Counted from the first letter of the whole stretch, positions 20,444-47,825 are shown. The stretch is DNA of 56,031 nucleotides, filler included, from Jimgerdemannia flammicorona (GCA_003990765.1; 3 parts of 3 records of this genome joined end to end with filler, not necessarily neighbours in it); one strand, 5' to 3'. The notes: generated from the letters alone by a model not told the origin. Made by a program: numbers and translations.

Positions 20444-21219
20444 TTAGACTGCTTGAAGGCAGACAGAGAATTGGTAGATTCTTTGTTCCTCCTCTTCTTC
20501 TTCCTCAGATCCTTCAGTTTCTGTATTAGTAGGAACTTCTGGGACTTCTTGATTTGGTTCCCAAATGATGAGGTGTGAATTGTAGCTAACAGAGTGGTGA
20601 GTAGTTGGGGTTGCTCCAACAGGTGTTGTAATAGTAATGGGTGGTCCTTCGAAGATTTCCATGAAACTCATTAGGTGACCTTGATGGTTGTCTCGGAGTG
20701 GAGTGGTGTGAAAGCCTGGTTGAGTGGGCTCAGTTTGTTGGCTTCCTACAGTGACCCGGTTACTACCAATAGAGTTGGCTACTTCTGATTCTATCCAGTC
20801 TGTATCTTCAGTTGAGAGACGGGCAAGACTTCCAGCAGTCACTCCTTGTAAGTGTGCTATAGCCCAGGGAATATAGCAGAAGATTTGGTGGATATGGAGG
20901 GCTCTCTTGATTAGCTGGCTGGTGGTTAATATTTCGGCAATGAGGTCTTCCTGGTCACCTTCTTGGGTTTCATTATGAAGGCAGTGTCCAATTTCATAAT
21001 CATGCCAGAGGGTCATTCATTCAGTGGTATCTTTGAGCTGTGAGTCATTATGTACTGGTAATTGATGAAGTATCCAAGATCTTTGATGTAGAAGTTCAGA
21101 TGTTCAGAGGTGTCTGGGTGCCAAATAGCCTTCTTGATAGCTTCAAGGATTAGAGTCTTTGGGCCAGGCAAGGGAGAAGAGCAGCGGGAGGTCTGGTTGG
21201 GGTGGCGGATTGGAGACAT
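20444..21219 (-). pseudogene. Family C accessory ORF inside LTR U3 (~257 aa, one frameshift near 21015)
   Basis: ORF-track pieces 21013-21219 and 20444-21016 both align with the family B LTR ORF (DLGYFINYQYIM vs DPYHFILYCYEM; LWHDYEIGHCL vs MWQEYKIGNLL; HIHQIFCYIPWAIAHL vs KIYQIFRHTPWSIPNL). Confidence 0.75.
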
Positions 21220-21915
21220 TGTGAGGTGGATACTTGTTCTTTGGTGCCGATTCCTGAGGCAGAGTATGGTTCTTTAAATAATGTAGTCTTCCTTTTGGCT
21301 CGGATTATCATTGCTCCTTTTGAGGTGATCACCTAATGGGTCAGGCTGTCTATTTGATTGTCATGCCATTATGTCATCTGATCTTAGCAGTCACTAGTAC
21401 TCCATTGTCAATTACATATGTCACAATATATATTGTCACATAGTGGTTGCTGAGTTCTTCAAATATGCCAGATTCTCTTCAAGGTATATCTCTTAGACTA
21501 ACTCAAGTAATTATAAGCAAGTTCTTATTGGAGTGCCTTTCCAAGGTCTTATAGTCCTCAAACTTCTTATCTTTAACTGTCTTGTTATCTCTTAGATTGC
21601 TTGCAAGGAAGTGTGTATAAGTGAAACTGGAACTTGACTTTATTTCAAAGGAAATAAGAGGGGTATTTATACAAAATACAATTCAATGGTTGCTAAGATA
21701 TAAAGCTAAATATAAAATTCCAACAACTAAAACTACTAAGTTCCAGAGTCGGTACTGATGGTTGTATAGGTTCATGATGCTGGCATTATTTAATATTATA
21801 TACATCAAAATGCTGGTGCTGGAACAATTTCATGTCACCTCAGAATATCACTGCTGGCATTATCCAGTATTACATGAGAATACCGGTGCTGGCATTATCT
21901 AGTGTAACAAAGAAC

Positions 21916-22218
21916 TTAGAGCAGAAAGTTCAGAACTATGGGAGCTTCATCCTCATCATCATCATCACTGAAGGAGATGAGATCCATGAATTCAGCATGT
22001 AGGCTGCACATCTCACATACTTCATTGTCACATGTTTTGTGTACTTTGCATGCTTTGGGTATGTCACACAGGATAATGTCATTGATGACATCATCACATT
22101 CAGCTGTGGCAGGGAAATTGTAGACAAGGTTTGGAGCTCTCCAGTCTATGAGATTCTCTTCCACAAAATAGGAAACAAATGTGGGGTCTTGGGGGGGTTT
22201 AACCTGGATGCTTGAGCC
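21916..22218 (-). pseudogene. In-frame downstream segment of the LTR B ORF (Cys/His cluster, acidic tail)
   Basis: Same frame as 22219-22773, separated by one TAA; contains ACKVHKTCDNEVCEMCSLH and DDDDEDE; conserved in the 5' LTR (34963-35265). Confidence 0.6.
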
Positions 22219-22773
22219 TTAGAATACTGAGATCAATCCTTGCAGAAATTGGTCTGGGTTGTTCTGAAGGATAGGGTGTCAGAAGTCTTCTACTTCTTCA
22301 CTGTTGAGGGTGATAGTGGACTGGGCTTCTGTAGTCACCCTGGCTTCTAGTGTATTGATGCAGCAGGATGATAGGTCTCTGAAGTCTGAGACTCTGACAT
22401 ACTCTAAGTTGGGGATTGACCATGGTGTATGCCTGAAGATCTGATAGATCTTCTTAGCTGTCCTTATTTCGCATATATCCATGGGAGTGACATCTTGTAG
22501 CTCTTGGGTGCTGGCTTGTGGGAACTCCTGGCAGAGGAGGTTTCCTATTTTGTACTCCTGCCACATTTGGAGGTATTCAGTAGCAATAGTGATCCTTGTT
22601 TCCATTTCATAGCAGTAGAGAATGAAGTGATAAGGGTCTGCAGTACCCAGATTGACACTAGGAGTCCTTCTTGAGCAGGTCCTCATGGCTCTTCTGATGT
22701 CTTGGAACATTCTTTCCTCAACTGAGATACCTTGGTAATTCCTTGACCTTGAGGTTTGGTGGGCAGCAGGCAT
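22219..22773 (-). pseudogene. Family B accessory ORF in 3' LTR U3 (184 aa once the TGA at 22279 is read as Trp)
   Basis: MPAAHQTSRSRNYQG...LQMWQEYKIGNLL...TAKKIYQIFRHTPWSIPNL...; the 5' LTR copy has TGG at the stop position. Confidence 0.8.
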
Positions 22774-23349
22774 TTAATTTGTGGTAAGTCTTTGAGCTAT
22801 TTTGGGATTAGTGGTTCTTGTTGGTTGCTGCTACTGCAGTTCCTTGATCCTTCTTTTATATTCTTCAGGATGCTTGTGCTATAGTCACAATGACTTACAA
22901 TTGGTCATCATTGCTCATCTCATATGCTGTATGATCTTCTTATGCTCCAATCTGGTGTCTTGTAAGGAAAGGCTATCTCTGGTGCTGATGTCATCATTCT
23001 GGGGTTACCATTACATCTTCCTTCTGAATAAGGATCTTCCTGAGCATCCTTATTCATTGGTCCAGTCTTGAAAAATTTGCTGATCCCATAACCTCTGGCA
23101 AGGGGTCGAAAACTGGTGTTTATGGGCTGGTGTCTTCCCTTTGTATTTTGGCATGATGGTGGAGGGTCACTCTCTTTATATAGAGTAAGGATCTGATTCT
23201 GATCTTGACCAATCAGTTGATGGTTCGAACTTCTCTGACTGTGAAAGTCTCACAGATGAGTAGTTGCCAGTGCCATATCCCTTAGAGAATGGTCCAGACA
23301 GATAGCCTGCTGGTCATAGGACATACTGTTATGATTCACAGACTAGAAC

Positions 23350-24560
23350 CTCATGGGTGGTCATCATGTTTTGCTTCTCTTATATAGGTTCATAGTACTT
23401 CTTGAGTCTATTCCTATGTACTGTATTAGACAGTATGGTCTCTGAGATTTTTCTAAGCCAGAAGGTAGTTCTCTTAATATCTTGCATGTAGAAGGGTCCT
23501 TCCCATTTGGGCTCCAGTTTTCATAACCATGAGGCTTCTACCATATTTTGATAGAGTAGAACCTTTTCTCTAATTTGGATGGGTTCTAGGGCCTTGTGAT
23601 TCTTTTCCACATTCTTCCTTGTCAGTGCTTGTGACTTGGTGATGTAATCTTCGGCCTTCTTTCTAATTTGGTGTAGTCTCTGGATTTCTGCATCAACCCA
23701 TCTCTAAGTTAGGTCTAGATTTGTAGCTGAGATTCCATCAGAATCTTCTTCTCTAAAGAGCAGCTCTCTTGGGGTAAAATGTATGCTCTGTGACTATATA
23801 TCTCATAGAATAGAGAGAGCAGTTGGGAGATAGTTATCCCAATTCTCATATATCTCTGAGATCTTTGCTAGGATATTCTTGAGGGTCTTGTTGGTTCTCT
23901 CTGTTTGTCCATTTCCTTGAGAGTGGTACATGGTGGTCTTGATGTGCTGGATCTTATATTTCTGATACATTATCTCATAGAATCCATTGATAAATTCTGT
24001 ACTGCAGTCTGTTGTGATTTGCTTTGGTGTCTTGTAGCAGCAGATGATTTCTCAGTATAGGAAGTTGGCTATAGAGAGGGCATTGGCTTCTTGTAATGCT
24101 CCTGCCTCTATCCATTTGGTGAAGAGGTCTATGATAACTATAATATAGTGGTTTCCTGATAGTGTTACTGGTAGTGGTCCAATGATATCCATTGTGATGT
24201 GGTGGAAGGGGATAGGCTCAATTATTGATGATTCTGGTGCCTGGTCTTGCTGATCTTGTTTCTGTTTTTGATACTTGTCAAACTCTTTGACAAATTGGCG
24301 CAGGTCTTCTTCCATCTTGGGCCACCATATGGTTCTTCTTACCTTATCATATGTGTTGATTCCTCCTAAGTATCCTTGCTCATATACTTCCTTCATTACT
24401 TGATACTTCTTATATTCAGATATTACTAGCTTTTCTCCTTTTCTGAGTGTAGTATTATCTAATTCAAACTGTTTCCAAGTCTGGTTGATGATGGTAATTG
24501 TCCAGGGTTTGAGATGGTTGGGCATCTTCTGCTGCCTAAGGTAGCTGATTAATCCATAGT
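23350..24560 (-). pseudogene. pol: Gypsy B integrase
   Basis: PFHHITMDIIGPLP, IDLFTKWIEA, TTMYHSQGNGQTERTNKTLK, WEGPFY. Confidence 0.9.
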
Positions 24561-24599
24561 ATAGCTCCTTATTCATGTTGAGTAGTCTTGATGGGGGTG

Positions 24600-25900
24600 T
24601 TTCAGAGTGTCCTTGAGAGTGCATTGGCATTGGTATTGGTCTTTCCTGAGTAGTGCTTGATAGTACAGTCATACTCTTGCAGCCTGTAGATTCATCTGGC
24701 ATATATTTCTTTGGGGTTCAGAGTGTGAAATAGCCAGGCAAGAGCAGAATGGTCTGTTTGAATGGTGAAGTGTTTTCTGGCTAGGTAGTAGTGGAACTTG
24801 TCTACTGCTCAAACTACTGCTAAGCATTCAAGCTTGTATGACTTATAGTTCTGTTCTGCTCCACAGGTACCTTGGCTTATATAGGAGATGATATATTCAT
24901 GTCTATCTTTCTTCTGAGCTAGGACTGCTCCAAGTCCTATAGCACTCACATCTGTCTGCAGGATGAATTCTAGGTTCCAGTCTGGTCTTCTGAGGATGGG
25001 TGCTTGGGTCAACCTAGTCTTGAGTTTATTGAAGATTTCTTGATGCTCCTTGGTCCATTCGAATTTGGTCTCCTTCTTCAGTAGCTTGTAGATAGGTGCT
25101 GCAATGTTGGAGTATCCTTTGATGAATCTTCTGTAGTAGCTGGCCAGTCCAAGGAAGGCATGGACTTCTGTAGTTGTTCTGGGTCTTGGGTAGGCTACAA
25201 TAGCCTCGATCTTCATGGGGTCTGTGTGGATTCCAGTCTGGTTGATGAGGTGTCCTAGGTAGGCAATTTCTTGAGCTACAAACTTGCATTTCTTGGGCTT
25301 GATGTAGAGGCCGTGCTCCTTGAGTCTCTTGAGGGCTAGCTGTATGTGATTGACATATTCCCGTGCAGTATTGCTGAAGATGATCACATCATCAACATAG
25401 ACAAAGAGCCACTTTCCAATCTCATTGCTGAAGACTCTGTTCATCATTCGCTGGAAACTTGCTGGGGCATTGCACATTCCAAATGGCATTTGTAGATAGA
25501 TATTGGTGGTATCAGGTGTGATGAAGGCTGATTTCTCACTGGCATCTCGAGTGAGACCAATCTGATGGAAGCCTGAGAACAGATCCAAGGTGGTGTAGTA
25601 TTTGGCTTCGCTTCTAAGAGTGGTAAGGATTTCTTGAATATTCGGCAAGGGCTGCCTATCCTTCTTGGTAATGGTATTGAGTTTCCTGTAGTCAATGCAG
25701 AGTCTTGGTGCAAACTCTCCAGGCTTGCTTCCTTTCTTTGGGGTAAGGACAATAGGTGAGGCCCAGGAGCTGATAGCTTGCTTGATAATTCTGGCTTCTT
25801 CCATTTCCTTGAGTTCGGCTCACAGCCACTCTCTGTAGGCAGGTGGTATGGGTCTGGCTTTCTGATAGATAGGCTTGGTATCACCAGTGTCAACTTCATG
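24600..25900 (-). pseudogene. pol: Gypsy B reverse transcriptase and RNase H
   Basis: SSWASPIVL, RLCIDYRKLN, LDLFSGFHQI, MPFGMCNAPASFQ, YVDDVII, LQTDVSAIGLGAVL. Confidence 0.95.
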
Positions 25901-26089
25901 GTAGTACTTGGGTTCTTGATTGTGGATATCCCTAAAGTCTGTAGCAAGTACTCCTTCATTCTGGTACAGGATCTTGAGAAGTTGTTCCTCCAGGGGAAAG
26001 TTTTCTCCAATGGTATATATGTGCTTGTTCTGGTCCTTGTCTTTCTTGTGCTCAAGTTCAGTAATCTTGGTGGTGGCATAGGCTCCTCT

Positions 26090-26500
26090 TCCAGTAGATC
26101 CAAAGTCTTGTTCTCCTCTCTTAGTCTTGATAAGTTCAGTGGCTTCTATGATCTTGGGCTTCTTGATTTCATGGATCAGCATCTGGCCAATCCTGTCATG
26201 CTTTTTGACTTTGAAGGGAGTGGTGTGGTTGTGATTTCTGACTATGAGAAAAATCTCGCCAGTATAATTAGGGTCAATTACTCCTCCTTCAACTGAGATT
26301 TTGCTTTTGGCCAGACTGCTCTTGGTCTTGATAATTCCAGCATGGTCTTCTGGCAACTTGACTCCAATTCCAGTGCCAAGTAGGGTAGTGGTCTGTGGTT
26401 CAAGAGTAGCATCTTGGATGCTGGCAAGGTCCATTCCTATGGCTTCTTCAGTCTTGTATTCTGAGATCTTGGCTTCAGGGTGAAACTTCTTGACCTTGAA
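26090..26500 (-). CDS. dut: dUTPase domain in Gypsy B pol (between PR and RT)
   Basis: Motifs GMDL, KSSLA, GGVIDPNYTGEI, DRIGQ and RGEQDFGSTG in an open frame. Confidence 0.92.
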
Positions 26501-26879
26501 GGTGATGTCTGATTCTTGTTCTTCCTCATTGTCACTGTCAGCTTGAAGCTCTGGGGGCTGGTCATCTTCTTTGGCTTTCCTTTTTGCTTTGGCAGCTTCT
26601 TGCTTATGTTTCTGTTGGTGGATTTTCCTGACTTTACTGATATAGGACCAGCAGTCATTCAGGTGTTCAGAGCAGTACATTCATACCATGGGGGCATCTT
26701 CCTTGAGGGGCATACTCATCAATGATCTTGTTATACCACTGCTTATCTGTGAGCTTGGGTGTCTTGTTCTTGTTCTTGTTCACTGAGTACATGAAGACCT
26801 CTGTGTCTTCTTCATCTTCTTCCTCTATGTCTGACAGGACTCCTTTGTGGACATTGATAGAAACTCATACCTTTCTTCC

Positions 26880-27220
26880 TCTGTAGTTGATCTGCATCTT
26901 CTGGATATTGAGGTCAATGATGGCCTTGGCCTTGTGAAGCCATTGGTTGCCAATAAGGATGTCATAGTTGGTGGCGCTTGTAACAATTACATCTACTGAG
27001 ATGGTAGCTCCTCCTATCTTGATGGGGACTTCTTGGATTTTGCCAAGAGGAGTAGCTCATATACCATCTGCTGTGACTTAAACCATCTTGGTAGACTCTT
27101 TAATGTCCCAACCTAGGCAGTCAATTGTCTTCTTACTCATGAGGCATCCTCCAGCACCAGTATCAATGATGGCATCAAAGATACAGTCTTTGATCTGATA
27201 GGGGGTATAGGCTGATGTCT
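26880..27220 (-). pseudogene. Gypsy B aspartic protease
   Basis: AIIDTGAGGCLMS and YDILIGNQWL. Confidence 0.85.
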
Positions 27221-27399
27221 TGTGCTGGTCTTCAGATTCTTTACCTGAGTTCTCAGATTCTTCTTGTGCATTGTGAGCTTCTACAATCTTGTACTCTTGA
27301 TTCTTGGTAGTAGTTGCAAGTCCTACTCTCAACTGCTGTCTGAAGGCAGAGACTTCAGCTAGCTGCCCAAAAGTGGCATTGACCTTCTGTTCTTTGAGG

Positions 27400-28410
27400 T
27401 CCTTATAGATGTCATACTGGTGGATCTTGGTCTTGCACAGCTTCTGTTCCTTCTCGCTCTTGCTTTCTCCTGAGACTGGAGTAGTGCCTTTGATAATTTG
27501 GTGGGTAGCTTCATCTAACTCTATGTCTTGATCAATCTCCTTGGGTTGGGTCTTGTTTTGAATAGTGACAGCTGGAGTCTTCTTTGGTCTTCCAACTGGC
27601 TTGCTGTTGCTCTTCTTGTCATAGGGCTTGGACCAGGTTCTGATACCTTCAGTAGCAGGGTAGAATTCAAGCTCCTTGTAGTATTCTTTGTCATCAGTGT
27701 CACTGATCTCCTCGATGACTACTGCATTGGTTTGTTCTCTGGTTCTGCTAGCATTGCTTGGTTGGGCTTTGCATCTTGTTTCGGTTATGCAACTCTTTGC
27801 ATAGTGGCCTTCTTCTCTACATCTGAAGCATGTGATATTACATTCTTCTATAGCAGCTGCAAATCTCTGTGCTGGTCTCCTGTTGGCACTTCAGACTTCT
27901 CTAACAATATCACTGAGGTGTGTAGTCATCTCAGCAAACTGCTTGGTAAGTTCTTCCACTGGGTTAGCTTTGGCTGTCTTGGGGGTAGGTGGGGTTGGTT
28001 GTCTGTTTACAACTATGGCAGATAAGATACTAGTTGGCTTTGATGGCTCCATCTTGATGCTAGTTATTTTCTCCATTGAGTGTTCGGCAGGGTGTCTGGC
28101 AGTCCAATATCTCTGTGCAAAGACCACTTTCTGATCAAGGGTCAGTGCAGCTGGAGTAGACTGGATTGCTAGGGCAATTTCAGAGTGAACTCCTTTGAGG
28201 AAGGTTGAATCCACTATTTGTTCCTTGAGGTAGTCATCATAGCCAGCCAAGACAATCTGGTAGCAGATTTGGGTATAGAATGAGTTGGGATCTTCACTAA
28301 GTCTCTGGCAGATAGTATTGAGTTGATCCTTGAGAGCTTGCTTGATCTCTTTGGTATAATATGTTGTTCTGAGGAAGACCTTCATGTTGGCAAGTTTGGC
28401 TGCACCAGCG
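27400..28410 (-). pseudogene. gag: Gypsy B gag, C-terminal part with CCHC zinc knuckle
   Basis: Continues AGAAKLANMKVFLRTTY from the N-terminal part across the LINE TSD; CFRCREEGHYAKSC at ~27789-27830. Confidence 0.85.
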
Positions 28411-31400
28411 GGTGACACAAGACTCAGACAATACTTTTCACTATGTTTTTGGTATCTGATGACTAACAACATAGATGGCAATGATTGAACTGGTGAGCAT
28501 ACTGGTCAGGGGGGCGATGGCGCCTTTGGCTGGCAGCAGGTGGGGAGGAGGGGAGATGGTTTGGAGATACCAGGGGCCTCAATGGCTAGCCGAGGTCCTG
28601 GTGGTAGAGGGAGGGGTGGTCTGAGGCAGAGAGGAGGGGAGAGGTCGACCTTTGCTAACAAGGTCAGAATGGGGAAGATGACTTTGGGTCTTGATAGTTG
28701 GCTGGACCTGGGGAAGGTGTTGATGGCTGTTGCTGGGGGACTGGGAGGTGTACCCAGGGGTATCGCTGAGAGTGGGGGAGGAGCGGGAGTAGGGGCTGGA
28801 GATGTGACTATTGATGAGGCTGTGACTAGGGATCTGGCAAAAAATCCAGATATAATGGCGGTTGATAATTCAGGACGAGGAGTGGGCACAAGGCCCAGAG
28901 ACCTGGTAGATAGGGTTACAGGCATAGTGTCGGCCCCATTACTCAAGAAGTTGAGGTCAGAATTTGCAGTCACAATGTGTTTCCGGGGCTTGGCAGTGAC
29001 AGCGAGGATGATTCTGGGGCTAGTGGTGTAGGAGGCAAAGAGCACAGCATCAGTGAAGTTTTTGAAGGAGAAGGAAGGAGTCAAGGTGGGGTTCGAGGAG
29101 GAAGACACCTTGCTGGCGGCCTTGGAGAAAGGGGTAATAGTTGGCAGGGTTATCATCCCTATGGCCAGGTGCATGTGCTGGGACCCCCAAGTGGTGCAGT
29201 TGACAGTGCTGGATCTCTCTATAGTATTGAAGGAGAGGACCAGAGAGTTGGTCATGGAGGTGATCAGGGAGTATGGAGAGATTGTGGATGTTGGGTTCAA
29301 GGTCTGGGAGGGTACAGAGCTTTGGACTAGTAATATCAATGTTAGGGTGAGACTGGCTGGGAGGGAGAGTACAGGGAAGTCGAGGGACTGGCCAGCGATG
29401 CTGAGGTAGGGACTGGTGGAGTACAAGGTCACGAGGGTGAAGGGGACCCAGAAGGAGGAGGAAGACCTGTTGAAGGCTCTGGAGGATCTGGAAGGGGCAG
29501 TCACAAGGAGGAAGAAGTTTGAAGCCAGGATGGTGGTAGGGGAGGTAGATGGGAAGAGGGTCCAAATGGAGAAGGGGGCCTGGGAGAAGCTGCAGGAGAG
29601 GAATATCCAGAAGGAGCTACTAGTGAGGTTGGATGGGGGTCAGGCCAGTGGAAGCTCAGGGGAGAGGGGTGTGGGATTGCAGGAGAGTGTCTGGGCTGAA
29701 GGGAGTGAAAGGGCCCAGAGTGGGGCTCAGCTGGGAGTGGAGGTGGAGAGGGTAGACAATATGGGGGCAGATGTGGAAATGAGTGAAGGTGTGCACCCCC
29801 AGTATAGTGTCCCAAGTAGAGCTAAGAGAGAGGAGGAGCTGCTTGATGTGCTGGATGAGGAGTGAGATGAGTCAGTGCAGAGGAGCATACTGGTGGACCC
29901 TGAGGTAGATGGGGGACAAATCGCTCAGGGTGCAGTAGAGGCAGTGGATGAGGAGAAGTGGATGTAGAAGACCCTGGAAGGGGTAGCAGCTGAAGAGCTG
30001 GGGGGTGAGGATTTCAGGGTGATGGAAGAAAGGTATTGGGAGGAGATCCTATAGGGGGAGGAGGTGCTGAGGAAGATGAGGAATAAGATCCTGGCTGTTC
30101 TCCTGGAGTTGGTTGAATATCAGTCAATGATCAGAGAGAGGAGGAACTTAGGAGAATTGTGAGTGACAGGGCACTATTCTTGTGGAATTCAAGGAAGGGA
30201 CTAGAGAAGTGGCACACAGTCTGCTTGGATTATCAGGCAGATATAGAGATAGTAGATGGGGTGGAATGTCAGGAAATCTTGGAGGCACTGGATGCTCAGG
30301 CTAATACAGAGGGTGACTTAGAAGCAGAATGGTGCTTAGATCTGGCTGGGGATGAGATGAGCATGGATTACTAGGATGGGGTCTCTCTTGCAACATTTTT
30401 TCAATATGAACAGTACAACTAGGATATTCTCTTTGAATGTTAATGGGTTATGGGAGGCTGCTAGGAGGAAGTATATATTTGGATAGCTTAAGAGACTAGA
30501 ATTGGACCTCTTCTTGTTACAGAATGTTTGTTATGAAGTAGATGTAGACCTCTAGGATTGGACTAAGGAATAGGGGGGTGTGGCAGTATGGAGGGGAAAA
30601 GTGTGTATCCTTATTTGGAAAGAGATGGAGGACATTGAGGATATTGGACATTGGGGGTCTCAGGTGGTGTGGGGAAGGTGGTTGAGGCCTGGATGGGGCT
30701 CATTGATGATTGGGTCTTGTTACTGCCCAGCTGAGAGAGGGGAGAGGGTGGACTGGGTTTGTAGATTGAGAGAGACTGGTGTATTGGGAGAAGTTGGGCT
30801 GGACTATATGGGGGGTGACTTCAACATGGTATGGGATAAGGAGATGGACAGAACAGATGGAGGAAGAGGTGTGCAGGGCGAAAGTGGTGGGCTGGATGAC
30901 TGGTTGGAGACAGAGAGATTGTGTTCTCTAGTGGACTCAGGAAGGCATTTTTGGGCTGATCGGCAGGTGTACACCCACTGGGCGGCAGGGCTGAGCTCCA
31001 GAATTGACTGGGTTTTGACGGCGGAGTGTTGGGGAGTAGATATCTGGTCAGCACTGGAAGTAGTTTGGTGTCCATGGTCTGATCACTGGGGGCTGCTTGG
31101 AGGGGGGAGGTTTGGAGGAAATGAGGATGGGCCTGGACATTGGCAGCTAAATTCTTCCTTGTTGGAGGATAAGGAGTTGTGGGAGGGTTGGGAGGCAGAG
31201 GTGGTTGGAAATATTGGTAGGTGGTGGGAACAAGGCCTTGAGACTGGGGACCGCTGGAGGAGGCTGAAGGTGATTGCTCAGGGGTATTGGAGGGAAGCTG
31301 GGAAAGCAAAGTGTGCCCAGCAAAGGCAGAGGGTGCTGTGGGCCTCACAGTATCTGGCAGCACTCATGGAGAGATGGGCAGGTGTGCTGGAAGATGGGGA

Positions 31401-37423: not shown

Positions 37424-38118
37424 TTTTTTATAGTCACTTGGACTCTGTCTTTATTACCAGTCTATGAATAAGTATACAGTATTACCTCCCACTACCCAAT
37501 TCCCACAGGGGAGCCCCTCCCCACCTCTTTATAAATAAAAATCACCCTCTCACCCACTACTCCAATCCTCCCCCCACTCTATCCACAGATTTTCTCTACT
37601 AAGTGATGCCTCTGACCACCCTGCAGCCCCCAACCAAGCCACCAGCCTGTCAAGGTGTCTTCCATAAGACTATGCTACTGCAATAACCTGTCCCCCAAGC
37701 TCTGTCTCCTTCCATCCTCAAAAACAAATAGTCAGTGACTGGCCAGCCCCACCCAAATAGCCAAAGCCCAGTTTAAGGTAAGCCACTCCTTTCCTACCCC
37801 CTCTACCAATCGATCCCTCAAGTCCTCCCACTGCCCCCGTACTTCAGCTCCCCTACACCTTACCCCCAAGCAATCCCCAATGGTCTACCAAAAGTCTCCC
37901 ATTATCTCACACTCTCCAAGCCAATGTTCTGACATCTGTACATAACCCCCTTCTTGTCCTACATTATGGCACTCCTCACAGTCAAAGCAATCCCCTATGA
38001 TAAGGTGATCTGAGCAGAAGTTGAGCATTATATTCCTCCTTATCATGTGCCACCAGACCACTCAGTACTTCAGTGGCATCCACTTTCTCACTGCAGCACT
38101 CCAGGTCCAAACACCTTG
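37424..38118 (-). mobile_element. 5'-truncated LINE 3' fragment
   Basis: Poly(T) plus ATAGTCACTTGGACT terminus; CEEC...EHWLGEC on the minus strand. Confidence 0.85.
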
Positions 38119-38339
38119 GCTATAACTGCTTAGTACTAGCAGGACTTATAACCTTTTTTATAAAAGAGATTGATTTTATTGAAGATGTAAGTTATATATT
38201 TTACACATTACTGATAAATGATATAAAACTAATAAAATAGTATATAGCATAATGTTATATACTTATATTGAGTTGCAATCTCAATAGATTTAAGTATTGT
38301 AAAGTAGATATATATATATCTATTATATATTCTCAGAAA

Positions 38340-38881
38340 TAGTATACTTAGAAATTTGAGTTGATGATATCATTTTAGTCAGAATGATAAGTAAAATTAA
38401 TAAAGTAAAGACAATACTATATAAGAAGTTCAAAATGATAGATATGGGCAATATGTCTTTTCTTTTAGAATATCTATCATATGTAATAGAAATATACATT
38501 CAGACTATATTCAAAAAATTTGGTATAAGCAAATATAAATCTATTAGAACTCCTATAAAGACATCTGTAAGGCTAAAGAGGTCCAGTAATACTATACTCA
38601 AAACTATATCTAGAACTAATAATATTCTCTATTAGTAAGTAATAGAATTTCTCATATATATTTTATGCTCAGAATGAGGCCCAATATATTATATATAGTC
38701 AAAAAAGTGATATAATACTCATTCTACTATAATAATATATATTAGATAGTAATTAAGTATATTTTCTAGTATATTAAAGATATAGTATACTATATACTCA
38801 ATTTGAGTAATGATAATAAGGGATAAAGCAAGAGTGCTAAAAGATATCTGATATATATATATATGATACTAATTTGACTAG
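38340..38881 (+). pseudogene. pol: Second Ty1/Copia RT remnant, extremely decayed
   Basis: *VDDII and KKFKMIDMGN; colinear with 2770-3340; ends at the RNase H D-x-D-W motif where LTR A begins. Confidence 0.75.
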
Positions 38882-40278
38882 TGTAACAGACCAAAACGTA
38901 CCACCTGAATTATAACTTAGCCAGATGACGCAAACAATTAGCATACTTACTCCACATGATGTGACTTCCAGTGTATCATAGTTACTCATGCCCACCACAC
39001 TTATAATTAGCCAAGACACTAGATCAGGATTGTTTATCTGTGTCCTGTAGACACACTCATGTCTGGCAGACACACTCATGTCCTGTGGACACACTCATAT
39101 CCTGTGGACACACTCATGTCCTGTGGACACACCTGTACCCAGAGGACACACCCAAACATTCCAAAGATAGCAAATCTATAGTTAGCCGCATAGTAATCAG
39201 ATAGCAACCAACTTGTATAAATTACCCCAGAGGCGAGAGTGAATAAAACCTCAGTCTGAAATACAAATACCAAAGAAGCCTCTAAAGATTGAGCATTAGT
39301 CCCCTTTCCACTCCAGTCCACTTTCCAATACAAAGCTGATTTTGCCACCAAGTTCGAGGAAGAACTTCGCTGCCTTTGGAACTATTGGTTCGCTTGCCAG
39401 ATAAGCCTGAAGATTTGCTGCCTAAGTTCAAGGAGAACTTCGCCGCCTTTGAGAATGCTTGTTATTGGTTCGCTTGTCAGATAAGCCTGAAGATTTCCGC
39501 CTAAGAGAAAGCTGCCTTGCTCAAGCCAGTTTCTGACGCAACTTTGCAGTGGAGCCAGTCTACGATGTAACCCTGTGCAAACGAAGCCAGTCTTTGATGT
39601 AACTTTACCAAGAGACCCTTTCCAAGCCGCCATCCTATTTCCCAGTTAGAACCCGCTGATTCAGGAAGAATCCGCATCACCTGCCATTTTTGAGTTATCC
39701 ACCATATTCCCAGTTGAAGCCGAATCCACACCATCCATCCGAGTTAATTCCCAGTTTTCGAGAAGCCTGCTGATTCAGGAAGAATCTGTGTCATTTGCCA
39801 TTTTCAAGTTATCCGCATCCCCAGAAGAGCCATCCAAGTTATCCATTATTCCCAGTGAAGCCTGCTATGGAAGAATCCGTGCCATACAATTCCCAGTGAG
39901 CCAAATCGAGTCATCTACTAGAAATCACATACTTTTGGAGATCGTCACGCTACACAAGATCATCATGCAGAAATCGCCCGCCAGATCCGCATAAGGAGAA
40001 CTGCTAAATTGCCAGACTGTCACGCATAAGGAGATCATCATGCTACATAGAAATTGTGCCATTCCCAGTTGACCCAAGAAGGAAGAGACATACAAATCGC
40101 CACTACTCCCAAGAATCTGTCCCAAAAAGGAAACTGCTTGCAGACATCCAGATCTTGACTATTATACTGCTAAACACTATGAACATTTTGTTGCTTTTAA
40201 CAAAGTAACTGGGGGCTCAAGCCAAACTACATCAACCCCCAATCTTGTAATTTGCCTCCATTGAGCCGATATGTTACA
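38882..40278 (+). repeat. 5' LTR family A (~1 kb U5)
   Basis: TGTAACAGACC...ATGTTACA; TATAAAT 39216-39222; AATAAA 39242-39247. Confidence 0.9.
39041..39133 (+). repeat. 19-bp tandem repeat x5 (TGTCCTGTGGACACACTCA) in U3
   Basis: Directly visible; not expanded in the other family A LTRs. Confidence 0.92.
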
Positions 40279-40280
40279 TT

Positions 40281-40297
40281 TGGGAGCTCAACTGGGA
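40281..40297 (+). other. PBS, decayed tRNA-Pro type (family A)
   Basis: TGGGAGCTCAACTGGGA 2 nt after the LTR; compare PBS-Pro TGGGGGCTCGTCCGGGA. Confidence 0.72.
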
Positions 40298-40854
40298 ATA
40301 TTTCAAAATCGACGTGACTTTTTAGCTCACAAGAACCTACAGTCAAACTGGATACATTTGATACAATACCAATCTCTGCTACTACAGGAGAACCAGTCAT
40401 CACTAGTATTTGGACAGGAAGAGAAGTAATCACCTCAAGACTTGCCAACTACCCAGCATCAGAAGGATCTCAACCAGAAGTAGGAGGCAGTACAGCCCGA
40501 AATCCTCAGCCAGATCAACCAGATCAACCAGATCAACCAGACAATACAGGCAGCCCTGCTGGAGATTTTAGAGAACTTGTACAAGAACTAGAAGACTTTA
40601 TTACCTGGACCCAACACCTTACAGCCAGATACCCCACACCAGTCCCACCAATTTCACCAATAGAACCCCTACCACAACCTCTTGCAGAACCAGAAGCAGC
40701 TCCTACAAGGATACCTAGGCCTACTCCACCTCATCCAAGGACCAGAACACCATCTTCAAGATACCCAAGCACCCTGGTCTCTAGTGACAGTTCAGAAAGC
40801 AAATCAGAATCAGAATCCAAATTCGAACCAGAATTAGAAGAAAGTGACAAAGAA

Positions 40855-42288
40855 ATGGCCACCTCATTGCCAATCTTTGCAGGATACCCAGAGGAAGACC
40901 CCAGAGAATTCCTTGATGGAATCGAAGGAATCGCAGCCTTGAGAAATCTCTCAGATGAAAGGAAGATTGCCATCTACAAAGCTCAGCTCAGAGAACCAGC
41001 CAGAGGGATTTTCCATCAAACAGCAAACAACCCAGATTCGGAACTAGCAAGACAGATACAAGCAGCAGTCTCCTATGAGCTAGAATATCAGACCATGGTC
41101 TACTGGCTCATAGAAAAGTATGCAGGAAATGAAACCCGGCACAAGGCTCAGGAATCCATCATGGGAATGAAGATAAATCTTGGAGAATCACCCAGAGCCT
41201 TCTTCACAAGAATCCAGAAGAGGATGCACTCCGCCAGGTTCAATGCCACCAACTAAGACATCATAGGTCCAATGACCTTTATGAATGGAATTTCTCCAAA
41301 TATTGCCTAGCATGTCCGCACCCTAGGCATCAGAAGGTCTGAAGAGCAAGTAGATGCAGCCCAAGAATTCTTTGATGTCAGGCAAGGAACTACCTGGAGT
41401 GATCATGATAAGAAGGAAGACAAAGAAGATATCCTGGTCAAAGCCCTGCAAGGACTCCTTCAAGGACAAGAAAGATCCGAAGAAAGAAGGCCAGCCAAGG
41501 AAGGAAAGAAGGACAGAAGTGAAATCCAAGACCTCAGCTCCAAGTTAGATCGATTGGTTGGTCAGATTGAAAAACTCACTATATGCGAAAATCGGAGCTA
41601 CCAAGACAACAGAGGATACCTACCACAGAGGAGCCAAGGTTATCCACCAAGAGATAACAGAAATTACCAGCAAGAAGAAAGAAGGTACTCTGCCCAAGAC
41701 AGAGCCCAAGTCCAATGCTTCCACTGTGGACAATTTGGATACTATGCCACTGAATGTGACAACAAAAGAAGTGACCAAAGAGACTCAGAACTACCAAACC
41801 GAAGGAATGACACCCAGTACAAGAAGACTGAAGCCCATCCTGTTGAAGATTTCGAGGAAGCAAGCAACAGTGAAGACTACAGTGACCTAGACTTATACCC
41901 TACCAAGGTTACCACCCGAAAGACAGTCTACCCAGCAGAAAAAAGAAAGAGATCTGTGGGAAGACCATCCAGGAACATCAGAAGAATTATTCAAGAAGAA
42001 GATGAAGAGCATGAGGAGGAACATGTTGAAACACCTCCCCGAACCCCCTCACCGTTTGTGCCCAAGACAAATGAATTGCCACCAGAAGATGAAGAAATGG
42101 AACAAGAAGAACGGGAACCTGCTGTTCCAAAGTCTAAGAAAAAGTACACTCCAAAAACCATGCCCAGAGACAATACAATGAAGCCTGGCAGAAGATTCAA
42201 GAAGTCAAATGGAAGTCCCTCTCCTGCAGTTCTTGCAATTGACACCAGCTGGAGTTCGAAACAAATTGCTGAGAACCACAAGGTCTAG
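40855..42288 (+). pseudogene. gag: Gypsy A gag
   Basis: MATSLPIFAGYPEEDPREFL..., LGESPRAFFTRI, zinc knuckle CFHCGQFGYYATEC (H>Y); in-frame stops. Confidence 0.88.
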
Positions 42289-42349
42289 CACTGGCCGAGT
42301 TCCAATCCCACAGCAAGAACCAGCTCCTATTCCTATTCAAGCAGCTGAA

Positions 42350-42730
42350 AGACATGTCAGCACCTACCTACATGGAGATATTGGAGGACAAAAAGTGAAA
42401 ATCCTCATAGACACAGGAGCAGCTGTCTGTGTCATCACCAAACGATTCCTGGACACCCTCCAATGGCCCATTGATGGACTATCCAACCTCAGTATCATAG
42501 TAGCAGATGGAGCCCGAACTCAACTCCTTGGAGAAGTATGAAATATCACTATCTCCCTTAGACACATTCAGTTCTCCATCCCCAAAGCTGTTGTCATCGA
42601 AGCTGTCACCTATGATATGATTCTTGGCACCAACTGGATGAAGGAAATGAATGCAGTTGTTGATATTGGCCAACAAGTACTCAAGTTTGACTACCGAGGC
42701 AAGAAGTATAGAGTTAAGGTGACCAGCTAT
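42350..42730 (+). pseudogene. Gypsy A aspartic protease
   Basis: KILIDTGAAVCVI and YDMILGTNWM. Confidence 0.9.
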
Positions 42731-44036
42731 GAGCAATCAAAGAAGAAGAAGAAGGTCACCATTCAAGAAGAATATGCCAGCAGTGAGGAGTCTACCAGAA
42801 GAAGAAGAAGAATCTGAAGATGGAAATGATCCCAGACTCAATTCACGAATTAACCTGGTAGATGACAGACCAGAAGACAATGTGTGGGCCAAGAACACTA
42901 TCCCTATTACCATTGGAGCCATCGCAGGAGAAGCCAAAGGATGCCCTATATGCCTCAAGAGACACAAGTGTCCCGAGCACTCCTCCAAGATCATGGGAAA
43001 AAGGAAATCACCTGGTGCAGCCTGCCCAGAATGCAGAAGAAAGAAGAAGAAATGCAGACATGTTCCAGAAACACCTGTAACTGAAGCTGCAGAAGTACAA
43101 GCAATTTGGGATCAAGAATCATCTGAAGAAGAAGAAACTTCTGACCAAGAAGTTCCTGAACAAGAAGTACCTGGTGAAGAAGAAGTCCCTGAACTCATCC
43201 CCTGAGATGACCCTCGCTGGATACCACCTGAAGACAATGACCCCTGGAATACAGAGGAAGGACCCAGTACCATCACCATTATCCCCAAGAAAGAAACCCA
43301 CCAAGAGAGAGCTTTTTGGCTAGGAAGATGTTCACATCAAATGGTCTTCCACTCTCCCCGAGACTATTGCTATCAGTGTCATCTGTTGGATCAACAAGAA
43401 AGACAGAGACCCCAGAGACCAGAACCCCCAACTACTCTTGCACAGTCTACCACCTTCCAAGAAGTCACCACAAGATTACAAAGTCGATTTAGGGGACAAG
43501 GCTTCTTTACCCAAACAGAAATATACCCCTTGTCTACCCTTCCACCAACTTATGATCAAGATGGGTACCGATTCCCAAGACAACAAGAGATAAATAGCTG
43601 GGAACATCATTTCCGAGCAATGGGATATTGCAACCATGGGAGACACCCTGATTGCTGAGACTGCAGACATCAGAAGATTCACCTCAGTCATGATGTTGCA
43701 GTGCACACATTGAAGAAAGGAGATAACTGAAGCCAGATCTGAAAGAGGCAGATTCGAAAAAGCCAGACCAAGAAGCTGGGAAAAAGAATTCTCAAGATCT
43801 ATGATTTGGGAGAAGACATCCTAGCTCTCATCAGACATGTAACCTGCCAAGGATGGGCAGAAGATGCCACCAACTTCATGGAAGCCCTTGACCCTACAGG
43901 AAGGAGGGAAATCAATTACCTCCGAGACCCCTCTACTGGAGCCAGATGGCCACACCTCAACCTTAGAGCTTGGAGGCTTTCTGCCAGCAGAGCTTCAGCC
44001 TTAGGAAAGCCTGAACTCAGCAAGGACATTGCCCAG

Positions 44037-44438
44037 TATGCCCTGCTGCACCCCAAGGCCAAGCCCCCGACCAAAGCTCACCCAGAAGATGTAGGATATG
44101 ATCTTCACAGCCTGGAGGACAAATCTATCAAGCCTGGAAAAACCTTCATGGTCAGAATGGGATTAGCCATGCAGCCACCTCAAGGAGCTTATATTCAACT
44201 GACCTCAAGGTCCGGACTTGCCAGACAAGGGATAACTGTAGAAGGAGGAACTATTGACCCAGGATATACAGGTGAAATCAAGGTCATCCTACACAACAGC
44301 AGTGCAGAATGGCACCGAATCATTAGAGGACAGAAGATTGCCCAAGCAGTCTTCATGAAGGTCAAGACCCCACAGTTACAGGAAGTCTCTGGACTAACTG
44401 AAGAGACAAGACAAGCTGAAGGATTTGGAAGTTCAGAC
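44037..44438 (+). CDS. dut: dUTPase domain in Gypsy A pol
   Basis: GYDL, SRSGLA, GGTIDPGYTGEI, QKIAQ and RQAEGFGSS. Confidence 0.93.
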
Positions 44439-44845
44439 AGGAAAGAGGTACATCTCCTTCAAGTCAACTGCCTCAAGAGGAATGTTCTCCAGCAAGTATA
44501 CTGCCAACTAGTCAGATTGCACAAGAATCTCATCCTGGAGCCTGGAGAACAAACCACTTTCGAAATCTTTGCACCACCCGACCCCAGGAACCTTTTCTTT
44601 GAACCCAAGAAAGATATCCCACACCTGGACATAGAGGGACACACATTCTCTGACAAAATGAACCCAGTATACTCCCGAGCAATCAACCAAAGTTGGGAGA
44701 CCATCATCCTGCCAAAAGGAACCATCATAGGACATCTGGTGCCTTTTCTCAACCGAACTCATAGGGAAGTTTATGAACTAAACCTATTGGGAAACGGCAA
44801 AAGGTCCCAGAAGAAAGGAAAGGCCCCTCTGCGACCCAGGAGACA

Positions 44846-46250
44846 GTGAAGCCTTCCACCAACATTGGAGAAGAATTGACACCTCAACAACAGCAACAAC
44901 TAGTAGAACTTCTCAACAAATATCAAGATATCTTCACCACCAATTATGGCAACCTGCCATACAACCCATCATATCACTACAGCATAAATACAGGAAGTGC
45001 AACACCCATCCGGCAGAAACCCTATAGAATACCCCATCACTTGAAAATATTCAAAAAAGAGCACATTCAAGAACTCTTAGACAATGGAGTCATCCGACCC
45101 TCCACTAGCCCCTGGGCCAGCCCTATACTTATTGTACCAAAGAAAAAAGGATGGAGACTCTGTGTAGATTACAGAAAACTCAATTCAGTCACCAAGAAGG
45201 ATGCTTATCCTTTGCTCAGGATCAATGACCTTTTGGACCAGTTACAGGATACCAGATACTTCAGCAGTATGGACCTCTTTGCAGGATTCCATGAGATCCC
45301 CATGGACCCCAAGGACATTCAAAAGACAGCCTTCCTTGCTCTAGGAAAACTGTTTGAATATCTCTGAATGCCCTTTGGACTCTGCAATGCACCCCCCACC
45401 TTTCAGAAGATAATGAATTCAGTCTATGCTCTCTTAATCCACCACTGCCTGATTATATACATGGACAATTCCAACATCTATTCAGCAAATTTCAAAGAAC
45501 ACCTGCACCACCTGGAGGAATTCTTCAAGCTCACCTGCAAGAACCACTTGAGGTTGAATATAAAGAAATGCTACTTTGGGAAACAGAAACTTGAATTCCT
45601 GGGATTCATGGTTTCAAAAGAAGGAACTCATGCAGACCTAAAGAAAACCAAGAAGATCAACAATTGGCTAGTACCCAAGACTCCAAAAGAAATACTATCA
45701 TTCCTGATGCTAGTATCCTACTATAGAAGATTCATCATGGATTTTGCCTAAATCGCTGCCCTAATTCAAATCCTTCTCAAGAAAGGAATACTGTTCAAAT
45801 GGACAGAACCACAGGAAAAAGCCTTCAGAGAACTCAAGAACTGCATGACCACAGCACCAATTCTTGTGTGCCCCAATCTACAGAAGCCATTTATCTTATA
45901 TATAGATGCTTCTAAAGATGGCCTAGGAGCTGTTCTAGCCTAAGAAGGATCTGATCAACAGTGCCATGTGATAGCTTATGCAAGCAGAGCTATCAATCAG
46001 CAGCAGATGAACTATGGTAGCACCAAACTGGAATGTCTTGCTGTCATATGAGCAGTCACCCTGTTCAAATATTACCTCATTAGAAAAAGGTTCACTCTGA
46101 TCACAGACTATGCAGGCTCAAATGGCTATTCAACTACAAGGAACCCACTGGAATCCTAGCCTGCTGGATCCTTATCCTTCAGGATTACAAAATCACCATT
46201 ATTCACAAAGCAGAGAAAGCCCACAACAATGTTGATGTACTTTCCCGACA
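44846..46250 (+). pseudogene. pol: Gypsy A RT and RNase H
   Basis: SPWASPILIVPKK, RLCVDYRKLN, MPFGLCNAPPTFQ, YMDN (D>N), LYIDASKDGLGAVL. Confidence 0.95.
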
Positions 46251-47300
46251 GCCCCAATGAATCAGAAGAAGGGTGTCCCAAGGAATCACACCCTAAAGGA
46301 AGCTCCTTAGACCATCAAAGAACAAGAAAATCTCATCTGACAAGAACATTGGAAAGCTCACCAAGGACAGACATGCATAGAAGACAAGATTCGAAAACAA
46401 TATCAATGTTAGCCCCACCTCAGAACCCAAGTCCGAGATGTCATTCAGAAATGTGACATCTGCCAGAAGTATCAAGGAAGGAAGAACTATCAAGCACCAC
46501 TACAACCAATCGCACTACCAGACAACATCTTTCAGAGATAGGGAGTAGATGTAATTAGACTCCTATCAGTTATACCAAGAAGAAACAAATATATCCTTGT
46601 ATTTGTGGAACATCTAACCAAGTGGCCTGAAGCTTTCCCAATAGAAATCACAGATACCTTAACTATTATAGGCCTTCTCCATAGACTCACACTCAGATAT
46701 GGACCACCAGAAGAACTCATCTCTGACTGAGGCATGGAATTCATCAACAAGTTATGCTCAAATTCACAAGATCCACCTCAAAAGGACCACATCATACCAC
46801 CCTCAGATCAATGGCATAACAGAGAGAATGAACCAGACCATCAAGAAAGAACTTGCCTGAGTCAATCCTACTAATTGGGACCTCTGCTTATCTGAGATCC
46901 TATGGGAAATCCAAAACACCCCTGCTGCCTCCACCAGACAAAAGCCATTCAAAATGATGTTTGCCAAGAGAACCAGAACTGCTGACCATGAGAATCTTGG
47001 AGACCTCCTCAAGAAGACAGAACAGTTATGTAATCAAGCCCAAGGACAGATTATCAAAGCCCAGGAAAGACAAAAGAAGTACTATAACCAAAAACAGAAG
47101 GATCAGGAGATCAAGATTGGAGATCAAGTCCTAGTTTGGAGAAGCATGATTGAGACAAACTTTGCCACCAAACTAGAACTAAAATGGGAAGGACCTTATC
47201 TTGTACACAACATCAGAGGAACCAGTATCTATTTAAAAAACATGAATAGATGAACCCTGAGAACACCAGTATACATCAATCATCTCAAACTATATTTCCC
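46250..47300 (+). pseudogene. pol: Gypsy A integrase
   Basis: CDICQK, FQR*GVDVI, VEHLTKWPEA, TSYHPQINGITERMNQTIK, KWEGPY. Confidence 0.9.
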
Positions 47301-47309
47301 CTCTACACT

Positions 47310-47825
47310 ATGAGCCAAAGAATTGATCAGCACCTCCAGACATTGGTCTTCAGCTCCTTCCAAGCCCTACCAGTCCCTCTACCCCAATTCAGCCAAGTCA
47401 ATGGGAGCCCCCTTCAAAGGATCCAGGCTCATCAAGAAAATCTCACCCTGGCCAGATGCCTACTATAAGTCCACCAACTGCAGGCCTATTATGTAATCGG
47501 TGAACAATTGCAGAACCTCCTAGCCCCAGAACAGACCTATATCAGGAACACTACAGGTCTGACCAGAAGAGACACTACTGCTACAGACAGACTATACACT
47601 ATTTACAAACGAAATGTCACAGCCCTGACACAGGTACAATTCTCCCTGAATGATATTCAAGGAATAAACCCTGTTACCTATTTGAGTATCATCAACTCTG
47701 TCAAAATCCTATTCCCTGAAGAAGAAGAAGAGTCCATAGAATGGAGTGACCCCAGTATAGACAATGAAGATGATGGAATAGGTATAGACGCAGAAGCAGT
47801 CTATGCTTATTGGGATGATGACTGA
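47310..47825 (+). pseudogene. Family A accessory ORF (171 aa with one internal TAA at 47466)
   Basis: MSQRIDQHLQTLV...LL*VHQLQAYYVIGEQLQNL...ATDRLYTIYKRNVTAL...AYWDDD*; the other copy has CAG at the stop. Confidence 0.82.

Follow-up and report, generated by a model that had tools for sequence, protein, structure and literature searches.

The extra genes known in retrotransposons that have long terminal repeats (LTRs) are mostly env-like genes, genes for enzymes, or antisense open reading frames (ORFs) of unknown role. Among retroviruses, foamy viruses encode Tas (Bel1) in a 3'-terminal non-structural gene which lies in or extends into the U3 region of a long LTR and has a dedicated promoter besides the LTR promoter; the protein ends in an acidic tail. 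The sag gene of mouse mammary tumour virus (MMTV) and the nef gene of human immunodeficiency virus (HIV) are likewise located in, or overlap, U3 of the 3' LTR, Sag being a type II membrane glycoprotein and Nef a myristoylated protein. Here, we describe an accessory gene family of Gypsy LTR retrotransposons, six copies of which are present in a 56,031-base stretch of DNA from the AT-rich genome of Jimgerdemannia flammicorona (GCA_003990765.1), hereafter called the window. The copies belong to four element families, designated A (with a second, truncated copy A'), B, C, and D. Like foamy-virus Tas, the gene is 3'-terminal and non-structural, reaches U3, and encodes a protein with an acidic tail, and a predicted TATA box upstream may serve as a promoter of its own; unlike Tas, it is carried by Gypsy elements without env, and in families B and C the whole gene and its TATA box are inside the LTR. 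Family B shares with MMTV sag and HIV nef a coding sequence in U3 that is duplicated in both LTRs, but its product has no hydrophobic segment and no likeness to Sag or Nef was found.

Other comparable genes are known from retrotransposons. The aORFs of the plant elements Grande, RIRE2, Retand, and PvRetro13, and brtn of the Botrytis element Boty, are antisense and internal, between pol and the 3' LTR (PMC7264820, PMC8365987). As far as the available parts of these reports go, they resemble the ORFs described here in being conserved extra ORFs of unknown function, their conservation within a family being similar to that of the proteins of the element itself; the accessory ORFs of the window, however, are sense ORFs, those of B and C being inside the LTR (brtn being compared by its description only). 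In the Oikopleura Tor elements, the third gene is expressed from an extra internal promoter downstream of the 5' LTR (PMC4402516); judging from the accessible text, a third gene with a promoter of its own, here predicted, is the common feature, whereas the Tor gene encodes an env-like membrane glycoprotein and its promoter is outside the LTR. LTR elements of bdelloid rotifers bear a dUTPase and carry ORF3s which are env-like or encode a GDSL esterase or a DEDDy exonuclease (PMC5408684); the dUTPase and the sharing of non-env ORF3s among lineages are as in the elements studied here, but among the ORF3s covered in the available part of that report there is no small helical protein ending in an acidic tail. 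Finally, fungal Gypsy elements with a dUTPase between protease (PR) and reverse transcriptase (RT) have been described, and one figure legend of that report mentions an "additional ORF with unknown function" (PMC2864245). Within the literature covered, which lay outside most subscription journals and the Repbase/Dfam consensus annotations, neither this accessory family nor a sense-strand ORF located in a retrotransposon LTR together with a TATA box of its own was found described; both the protein family and the in-LTR arrangement appear to be undescribed.

An accessory gene family shared by four Gypsy families

To delimit the family in the window, a profile built from a 15-sequence alignment without any A sequence (A5) was compared with all stop-to-stop ORF pieces of at least 20 amino acids (aa). 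Eleven pieces matched at E<1e-3 and assembled into exactly six copies (Table 1), while the five other rows had E>2 and represent noise. These are the same six copies that had been listed in the initial annotation, made by a model from the sequence alone, and the peptides quoted there were found in their places. The profile had no similarity to the gag ORFs of the window or to any other ORF piece.

The common core proposed for the four families was borne out by pairwise and profile comparisons. B and C are similar along the whole protein (BLASTP E 8e-10), sharing an N-terminal block (MPxxR..QTS), the core, a block F-x-x-P-L-x-D-N ... F-x-G-P-x-I, and the acidic tail, and B and D match with E 8e-4. 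The core is characterised by the motifs Y-x-I-G-x-x-L ... A-x-R-I-h-x-I-F ... L-x-g-V. Family A is the most divergent: its pairwise BLASTP comparison with C was not significant (E 3.7), and hhalign against a thin B/C/D profile gave an E-value of 0.088. A lack of significance in profile–profile alignment among the families had been named beforehand as speaking against a shared family. When the two A copies were compared with the A-free 15-sequence profile, hhalign returned a probability of 81% and E 1.3e-5, with an alignment collinear with the motif noted earlier. We consider it very probable that all these ORFs belong to one fast-evolving accessory gene family in a group of dUTPase-bearing Gypsy LTR retrotransposons.

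The window is a concatenation of three pieces, 1-18612, 18713-37323, and 37424-56031 (18612, 18611, and 18608 bases), and not a single locus, so adjacency across the two linkers is artificial. The D copy is partial because the linker beginning at 37324 truncates it. The five remaining copies are all broken: there are two in-frame stops in the copy of the B 3' LTR (B3), four in that of the B 5' LTR (B5), one in A, four in A', and a frameshift plus a stop in C. As had been stated, each of the six copies shares its strand with pol or the LTR; the accompanying claim, that each is an extra ORF located 3' of the integrase or in the LTR, could be followed up to pol in the window for A and B only. C is tied to an element through a stretch resembling a primer-binding site (PBS), and D through LTR-like features only.

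The lesions of the five copies comprise 11 in-frame stops and one frameshift, and in contigs of sequencing run X1 compared with the window, transitions prevail (A>G 85, G>A 58, T>C 59, and C>T 40, with at most 10 of each transversion). This bias towards stops, together with the excess of transitions, suggests decay of the deamination type. The variant table contained mostly private changes of the window copy and added nothing to the selection test presented below.

Table 1. Coordinates of the retroelements, their LTRs, signals, and accessory ORFs in the window (PPT, polypurine tract)
Feature	Position	Strand	Remarks
Element A, Gypsy	38882-49153	+	
A 5' LTR	38882-40276	+	decayed, TGTATAAATA box no longer exact; followed by PBS-like TTTGGGAGCTCAACTGGG
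A gag-pol	40318-47253	+	split over several frames; aspartic protease, dUTPase between PR and RT, RT, integrase C-terminus
A Pfam matches	gag-asp_proteas 42182-42538; dUTPase 43743-44846; RVT_1 44777-45748	+	
A accessory ORF	47310-47825	+	171 codons, one in-frame TAA 47466-47468; hmmsearch E 1.4e-4
A 3' LTR	47862-49153	+	begins TGATGTGACA right after purine-rich tract (agtggggg); start ~47862
A TGTATAAATA box	47978-47987	+	153 nt past ORF stop
Element A', second A-type 3' end	3652-5648	-	truncated; blastn 3652-5648 vs 49153-47140
A' LTR	3652-4925	-	TGTATAAATA box 4805-4814; upper bound ~4925 from homology to A
A' accessory ORF	4964-5479	-	single frame, 4 in-frame stops, ends ...YPHWDDN; hmmsearch E 8.6e-7
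Element B, complete Gypsy	21433-36062	-	
B 3' LTR	21433-23015	-	1583 nt, TG..CA, begins TGTAA, ends ACA; PPT CAGAAGGAAGA at 23016-23026
B 3' LTR signals	TATAAA 22855-22860; ATG 22773; ORF to 21916; TGTATAAATA 21664-21673; AATAAA 21639-21644	-	
B 3' LTR accessory ORF	21916-22773	-	285 codons, 2 in-frame stops; two pieces, E 7e-60 and 3e-20
B internal region	23016-34485	-	integrase, RT/RNase H, dUTPase, gag CCHC; plus-strand LINE-like interruption ~28411-34009
B Pfam matches	Integrase_H2C2 24055-24717; RVT_1+RNase H 24812-25819; dUTPase 25823-26680; zf-CCHC 27081-27890	-	
B 5' LTR	34486-36062	-	1577 nt, 91% identical to 3' LTR; followed by PBS-like TTGGTACCCATTGGCTGG
B 5' LTR signals	TATAAA 35902-35907; TGTATAAATA 34717-34726	-	
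B 5' LTR accessory ORF	34963-35820	-	285 codons, 4 in-frame stops
C putative 5' LTR	19137-21425	-	single copy; start TGTGACATATG (TGTGACA at 21425) inferred from A LTR start
C signals	TGTATAAATA 19952-19961; AATAAA 19928-19933; ATG 21219	-	
C accessory ORF	20294-21219	-	~308 codons; frameshift near 21016, in-frame TAA 20444-20446
D signals	TGTATAAATA 36799-36808; AATAAA 36775-36780; ORF stop 37103	-	
D accessory ORF	37103-37323	-	C-terminal 72 codons only, stop-free; profile E 5e-24
Artificial linkers (44 N, TTAATTAATTAA, 44 N)	18613-18712 and 37324-37423		two identical copies

Relatives outside the window

Intact versions of every family, 153–342 aa long, are known outside the window. Word-indexed searches yielded three relatives among 13 candidates for B and three among 33 for C, and a search with a four-family profile yielded 15 among 3884 candidates. 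HMMER with the B/C/D profile against 1.84 billion representative proteins gave 16 matches at E<=1e-3, for which sources were not listed. One match, P0018 (1306 aa), was rejected as a bacterial Ig-domain protein whose low-complexity tail had caused the match. The intact members include P0002 (271 aa) for B and the B-like L002 (291 aa), L001 (323 aa), and P0008 (342 aa); P0005 (325 aa) for C; P0022 (153 aa) for D, with the same C-terminus ...EAWEFE as the D copy of the window; and P0030/P0031 (171–172 aa) for A, on the basis of which the start of the A ORF was set at 47310. P0012, P0013, P0020, and P0021 are more distant members.

No Pfam domain was found in any relative. Those with a source shown come from jgi/ena environmental contigs of 0.5–3 kb and are either unnamed or termed "hypothetical protein". 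The suggested likeness of the motif to a domain of expanded Glomeromycotina hypothetical proteins found no support.

Among metagenome loci, three of the 210 candidate stretches passed with alignment A6, alignment A5 being too diverse for this search. L001 and L002 are real loci of 1.3–1.5 kb, too short to show a pol context, while L003 was discarded as a 15-residue chance match. The B LTR itself is covered many times, with 80–99% likeness, by contigs of two soil-metagenome and two organism-labelled runs, and several of these contigs pass from the LTR end at 21433 into PBS sequence matching that which follows the B 5' LTR. Contigs of run X10, which is RNA only by guess, cover the B LTR together with its ORF many times over; this coverage does not show transcription.

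Purifying selection on the accessory protein

The ratio of nonsynonymous to synonymous substitution rates (dN/dS) was calculated by the method of Nei and Gojobori (NG86) on codon alignments of the open parts. It was 0.19 for B3 and L001 (164 codons, with 51/37/71 differences at the three codon positions), 0.20 for B3 and L002, 0.18 for L001 and L002 (279 codons, dS being saturated), and 0.24 for A and A' (77 codons). Higher ratios were obtained for C against L001 (0.39) and L002 (0.34). None of these is near unity, the value that had been named at the outset as speaking against a functional protein.

The two LTR copies of one B element gave 1.12 over 71 codons and 0.46 over 95 codons, higher since these copies have been evolving separately only since insertion. 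The difference between a ratio of about 0.2 among lineages and the higher values between the B LTRs indicates constraint during the diversification of the elements and neutral decay after insertion. Altogether, the protein family is real and under purifying selection, and it is tied to at least four diverged Gypsy families.

Position of the gene relative to the LTR

In all families the accessory gene is the last one on the sense strand and lies upstream of the decamer TGTATAAATA. This decamer occurs six times in 56 kb, against 0.11 occurrences expected, once for each ORF copy, on the same strand and 153–333 nucleotides (nt) past the stop codon. The sequence around it can be aligned among A, B, C, D, and L001, AGCAACCAT is present in both A and B, and AATAAA follows 17–22 nt beyond the decamer in B, C, D, and L001.

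The families differ in where the LTR begins. In A, the pol frame ends at the stop 47251-47253, the sense-strand ORF is located between this stop and the 3' LTR, and the LTR start falls between the gene and the TGTATAAATA box; the gene is outside the LTR and is therefore present once per element, and a profile search over the window ORF pieces found no accessory copy in the A 5' LTR. In B, and by inference in C, the LTR starts about 200–240 nt upstream of the ATG, so that U3 contains the whole gene and each of the two LTRs carries a copy. In B, where TG..CA ends and a target-site duplication (ATATAT on both sides) are documented, the gene is wholly inside both LTRs, with TATAAA at position 156, the ORF at 243–1100, TGTATAAATA at 1343–1352, and AATAAA at 1372 of the 1583 nt; assuming that this part is U3, the ORF has a position like that of MMTV Sag. 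The single C copy was taken as a 5' LTR with the gene because a stretch about 820 nt beyond its AATAAA aligns with the PBS region of A. The start of the LTR, and hence the position of the polypurine tract, thus differs between families, and the LTR boundary has moved so that the gene has joined U3 in some lineages.

A second conserved box precedes the gene. TATAAAAG is found 61–80 nt upstream of the ATG in all four B-clade sequences (B3, B5, L001, and L002), the proteins of which are merely 43–59% identical. Boxes of the TATTTAAA type are also present in two other families, namely TTATTTAAAG 66 nt upstream of the gene in C and TATTTAAAAA about 75 nt upstream in A, where it is inside the end of pol.

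Several further features of the LTRs were recorded. Several GATGAC/TGTGACA-like words (AATGATGACATCAG, CAATGATGACCAAT, TGATGTGACA, AGATGATGTGACA, and CAGATGACATAATGGCATGACA) occur within ~100 nt of the LTR start in A, B, and C (47862-47950, 22915-23015, and 21360-21425). The C LTR has tandem repeats on the minus strand, with units of ~126 nt after the ORF (20047-20302, 86% identical) and of ~50 nt after TGTATAAATA (19620-19800), and in part owes its length of 2.3 kb to them. B is inserted in a (TA)n run, only 8 nt upstream of the point where the C LTR presumably begins (21425-21440, 36063-36075), and the flanks of A and A' are TA-rich too. In L002, the 12-mer GTCAGGCGGAAC occurs twice with similar flanks, at 165-185 (~120 nt upstream of the TATA box) and at 1475-1500 (~230 nt past the stop); no such pair was seen in the other families.

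Protein features and structure

The initial annotation had described the protein as non-env, ending in acidic tails in A, B, and C, and not assignable to a named domain, and our results agree on all three points. In 10 full-length members, the maximum Kyte–Doolittle mean over 19 residues was 0.19–1.07, and no segment resembling a transmembrane helix was found. With regard to env-like ORF3s of the errantivirus/Athila type, hydropathy revealed no membrane anchor, although no dedicated signal-peptide prediction was made. The last 40 residues carry a net charge of -9 to -18 in A, B, and C, and the tails end in acidic–aromatic sequences (DDVWHQL, YPHWDDD, DEAPxILNFLL), D ending in EAWEFE. In B and C, the N-terminal 40 residues have a positive net charge (+5 to +8), whereas A, D, and other members do not conserve it.

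The AlphaFold model of the D-type protein P0022, based on a 20-row alignment, has seven helices and high confidence (predicted local distance difference test score, pLDDT, 89.1; predicted template modelling score, pTM, 0.80). The model of P0005 (325 aa, 7-row alignment) was unusable (pLDDT 38). The protein can be described as soluble, with a compact all-helical core and, in most families, a disordered tail in which acidic residues and aromatic or bulky ones abound.

Searches of Pfam, PHROGs, and the PDB by sequence gave no match: hmmscan against Pfam found none for 20 members at E<=10 and none for 15 at E<=1, the DUF3102 model (PF11300) included, and no chromo-, zinc-finger, or other chromatin-reader or RNA-binding domain appeared in Pfam-type scans. 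No significant fold match was obtained either. Weak structural matches resembled helix-turn-helix (HTH) proteins; ranks 1 and 13 of the Foldseek search of BFVD were DUF3102 proteins (probabilities 0.72 and 0.60, E ~1), and none of the best 50 BFVD matches listed was a retroviral protein, which does not exclude kinship with Tas. In the ESM Atlas, P0022 matched only unnamed bacterial, phage, and archaeal clusters at 0.92–0.95, which are leads only, and P0005 had no usable match. DUF3102 proteins were also sought in prokaryote genomes reached via 79 dUTPase loci, where they were found in 0 of 3 genomes, 0 of 301 (E<=1e-8), and 2 of 401 (E<=1e-3). The protein family is a candidate for a new domain, with no Pfam model.

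Possible function of the accessory protein

Our tentative reading, to which we give somewhat less than even weight, is that the protein works in the nucleus, where it would bind DNA and regulate the LTR promoter or promoters of its own element. It is based on the position of the gene, its own TATA box, the helical core with its HTH-like hints, and the acidic–aromatic tails, which are typical of activation domains. The helical core would bind DNA and the tail would recruit the transcription machinery, an action resembling that of foamy-virus Tas made from its internal promoter. The transactivator or anti-silencing role proposed initially is compatible with the anatomy as read from the DNA, that is, with the place next to the putative core promoter, the predicted TATA box of the gene, the helical core, and the tails.

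The conserved boxes could be accommodated as follows. TGTATAAATA (AGCAACCAT..TGTATAAATA) would be the core promoter of the genomic RNA; it is read as a promoter since, in the short segment that follows the LTR start of A, no other TATA-like box was noticed. The upstream box (TATAAAAG in the B clade) would be the promoter of the gene itself, and AATAAA a shared poly(A) signal. Given the conservation of TATAAAAG at its distance from the ATG, the B-clade LTR may form a self-contained transcription unit, consisting of a TATA box, a short leader, the ORF, and the shared AATAAA, the expression of which would be independent of the genomic RNA. One could go further and regard these elements as "complex" LTR retrotransposons, in which U3 would have taken up a Tas-like autoregulatory transactivator gene together with its promoter, so that each LTR, even a solo one, would be a gene standing by itself and providing the activator in trans to all sibling promoters; this extension is possible but doubtful.

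Several observations weigh against a regulatory role. The D-family proteins (153 aa) are nearly tail-less, so an activation tail is not universal. Every copy in the window is dead or cut, the neighbouring pol genes are dead too, and linkage to pol is directly visible for A and B only. As for DNA binding, hhalign against a thin 2-sequence DUF3102 alignment gave a probability of 0.07%, and at a different region, so that kinship with DUF3102/ParB-type HTH proteins is unproven. Both TATA boxes are predicted promoters, and the TGTATAAATA...AATAAA module could instead be a 3'-end processing signal, in which case the B and C genes would lie in a very long R region. A common operator was also sought among words of 8–10 nt shared upstream of both TATA boxes, but these exceeded shuffled sequences only in L002, were borderline in B5, and did not do so in B3, C, and A, which gives no general support to such an operator.

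Some of the same evidence would suit a chromatin-associated role, an alternative that we regard as unlikely. The core would bind DNA or chromatin near sibling LTRs and either counter host silencing, as VANC does for VANDAL transposons, or tether the pre-integration complex to safe sites. The weak HTH-like hints apply equally here, a gene located in the LTR could be kept in supply by solo LTRs, the window is a nest of related elements, and B has been inserted immediately upstream of the C LTR. That insertion, however, is a single case which the (TA)n target may explain, A also being flanked by TA-rich sequence; the Pfam-type scans detected no known chromatin-reader domain, and the acidic–aromatic tails fit activation at least equally well.

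Quite unlikely, in our opinion, is a role as a cofactor of the RNA or the particle, acting as a chaperone or adaptor in genomic-RNA export, packaging, Gag assembly, or reverse transcription. It is common for small helical accessory proteins of retroelements to take part in these processes, the N-termini of B and C are basic, and the dN/dS values show that the protein matters to the element. Yet the N-terminal charge is not a conserved feature of A, D, and other members, the Pfam-type scans showed no known RNA-binding domain, and the protein has no likeness to the gag products or other ORF pieces of the window.

It is very improbable that the gene is a captured or domesticated host gene, serving the host or travelling as a passenger without a role in the element. 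LTR retrotransposons do acquire foreign ORFs, as illustrated by the ORF3 repertoire of bdelloid elements in the available part of the report (PMC5408684). In the present case, no cellular homologue was found among the 1.84 billion representative proteins, the 16 matches at E<=1e-3 including the spurious P0018. Moreover, its place with respect to the predicted promoter box is unchanged in families with RTs only 41% identical, and the gene is more diverged than pol; this fixed place and greater divergence point to an old co-evolution with the elements.

The last alternative, that there is no gene but only chance frames or conserved non-coding LTR sequence, would agree with the stops or truncation seen in all six window copies, but is effectively refuted by the confident structure model and by dN/dS of about 0.2 with mostly third-position differences, alongside more than 10 intact full-length ORFs of 150–340 aa outside the window.

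Carrier elements and other features of the window

Self-comparison by blastn and a Pfam scan of 112 stop-to-stop ORFs, each of at least 90 aa, showed that the window contains a nest of retroelements. Elements A and B possess the features of Ty3/Gypsy elements (Metaviridae): an LTR pair, a PBS-like stretch, a polypurine or purine-rich tract, and, in both, the Pfam domain order gag(CCHC)-PR-dUTPase-RT-RNase H-integrase on the element strand. They represent distinct element families, since their RT N-termini are 41% and their dUTPases 31% identical. The 5' and 3' LTR pieces of A are 70–85% identical by blastn. Fragments C and D consist of LTR only and are situated on either side of B.

Several elements resembling long interspersed nuclear elements (LINEs), with endonuclease and RT, are present on the plus strand; one is inserted in B at ~28411-34009, and the A' element is interrupted by another at 5648-5652. 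The LINE-like elements (Exo_endo_phos and RVT_1 fragments at 5652-18600 and 28411-34009) have a GC skew of +0.4 to +0.5 and nearly no AT skew, their sense strand being very C-poor; the copy in B sits in the end of gag.

Direct repeats of ~1.5 kb at 49475-51009 and 54491-56019, 79–82% identical and 5.0 kb apart, may belong to a non-autonomous LTR element. No Pfam match was found in the two ORFs of at least 90 aa in the ~3.5 kb between them, and neither an accessory-family copy nor a TGTATAAATA box was detected in the whole unit (49475-56019) by the profile search of the window and the box scan. Finally, a minisatellite with units of ~31 nt (…ACGTCACCCGTCTTTAACCCGACCCGGAATTAT…), followed by short repeats of the CCCGAC/CCCTGA type, occupies 18713-19000 on the minus strand, up to the piece boundary.

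Significance for LTR retrotransposons

Set beside the extra genes listed at the outset, the gene described here is a sense-strand gene under purifying selection, common to families with RTs only 41% identical, and adjoining a predicted core-promoter box, with the whole gene and a predicted TATA box enclosed by the LTR in some lineages, an architecture that complex retroviruses use for regulators such as foamy-virus Tas. In practical terms, a hidden Markov model of the protein combined with the TGTATAAATA box provides a simple annotation marker for elements that would escape standard gene calling when genomes are masked. Provided that the protein regulates the LTR, self-encoded transcriptional control would have evolved in retrotransposons without env. 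This would explain LTR lengths of 1.3–2.3 kb, and solo LTRs would not be inert, as each could still express the factor. Should the reading as an autoregulatory transactivator prove true, this would be the first such regulatory accessory gene outside the Retroviridae, built on a fold without a known relative.

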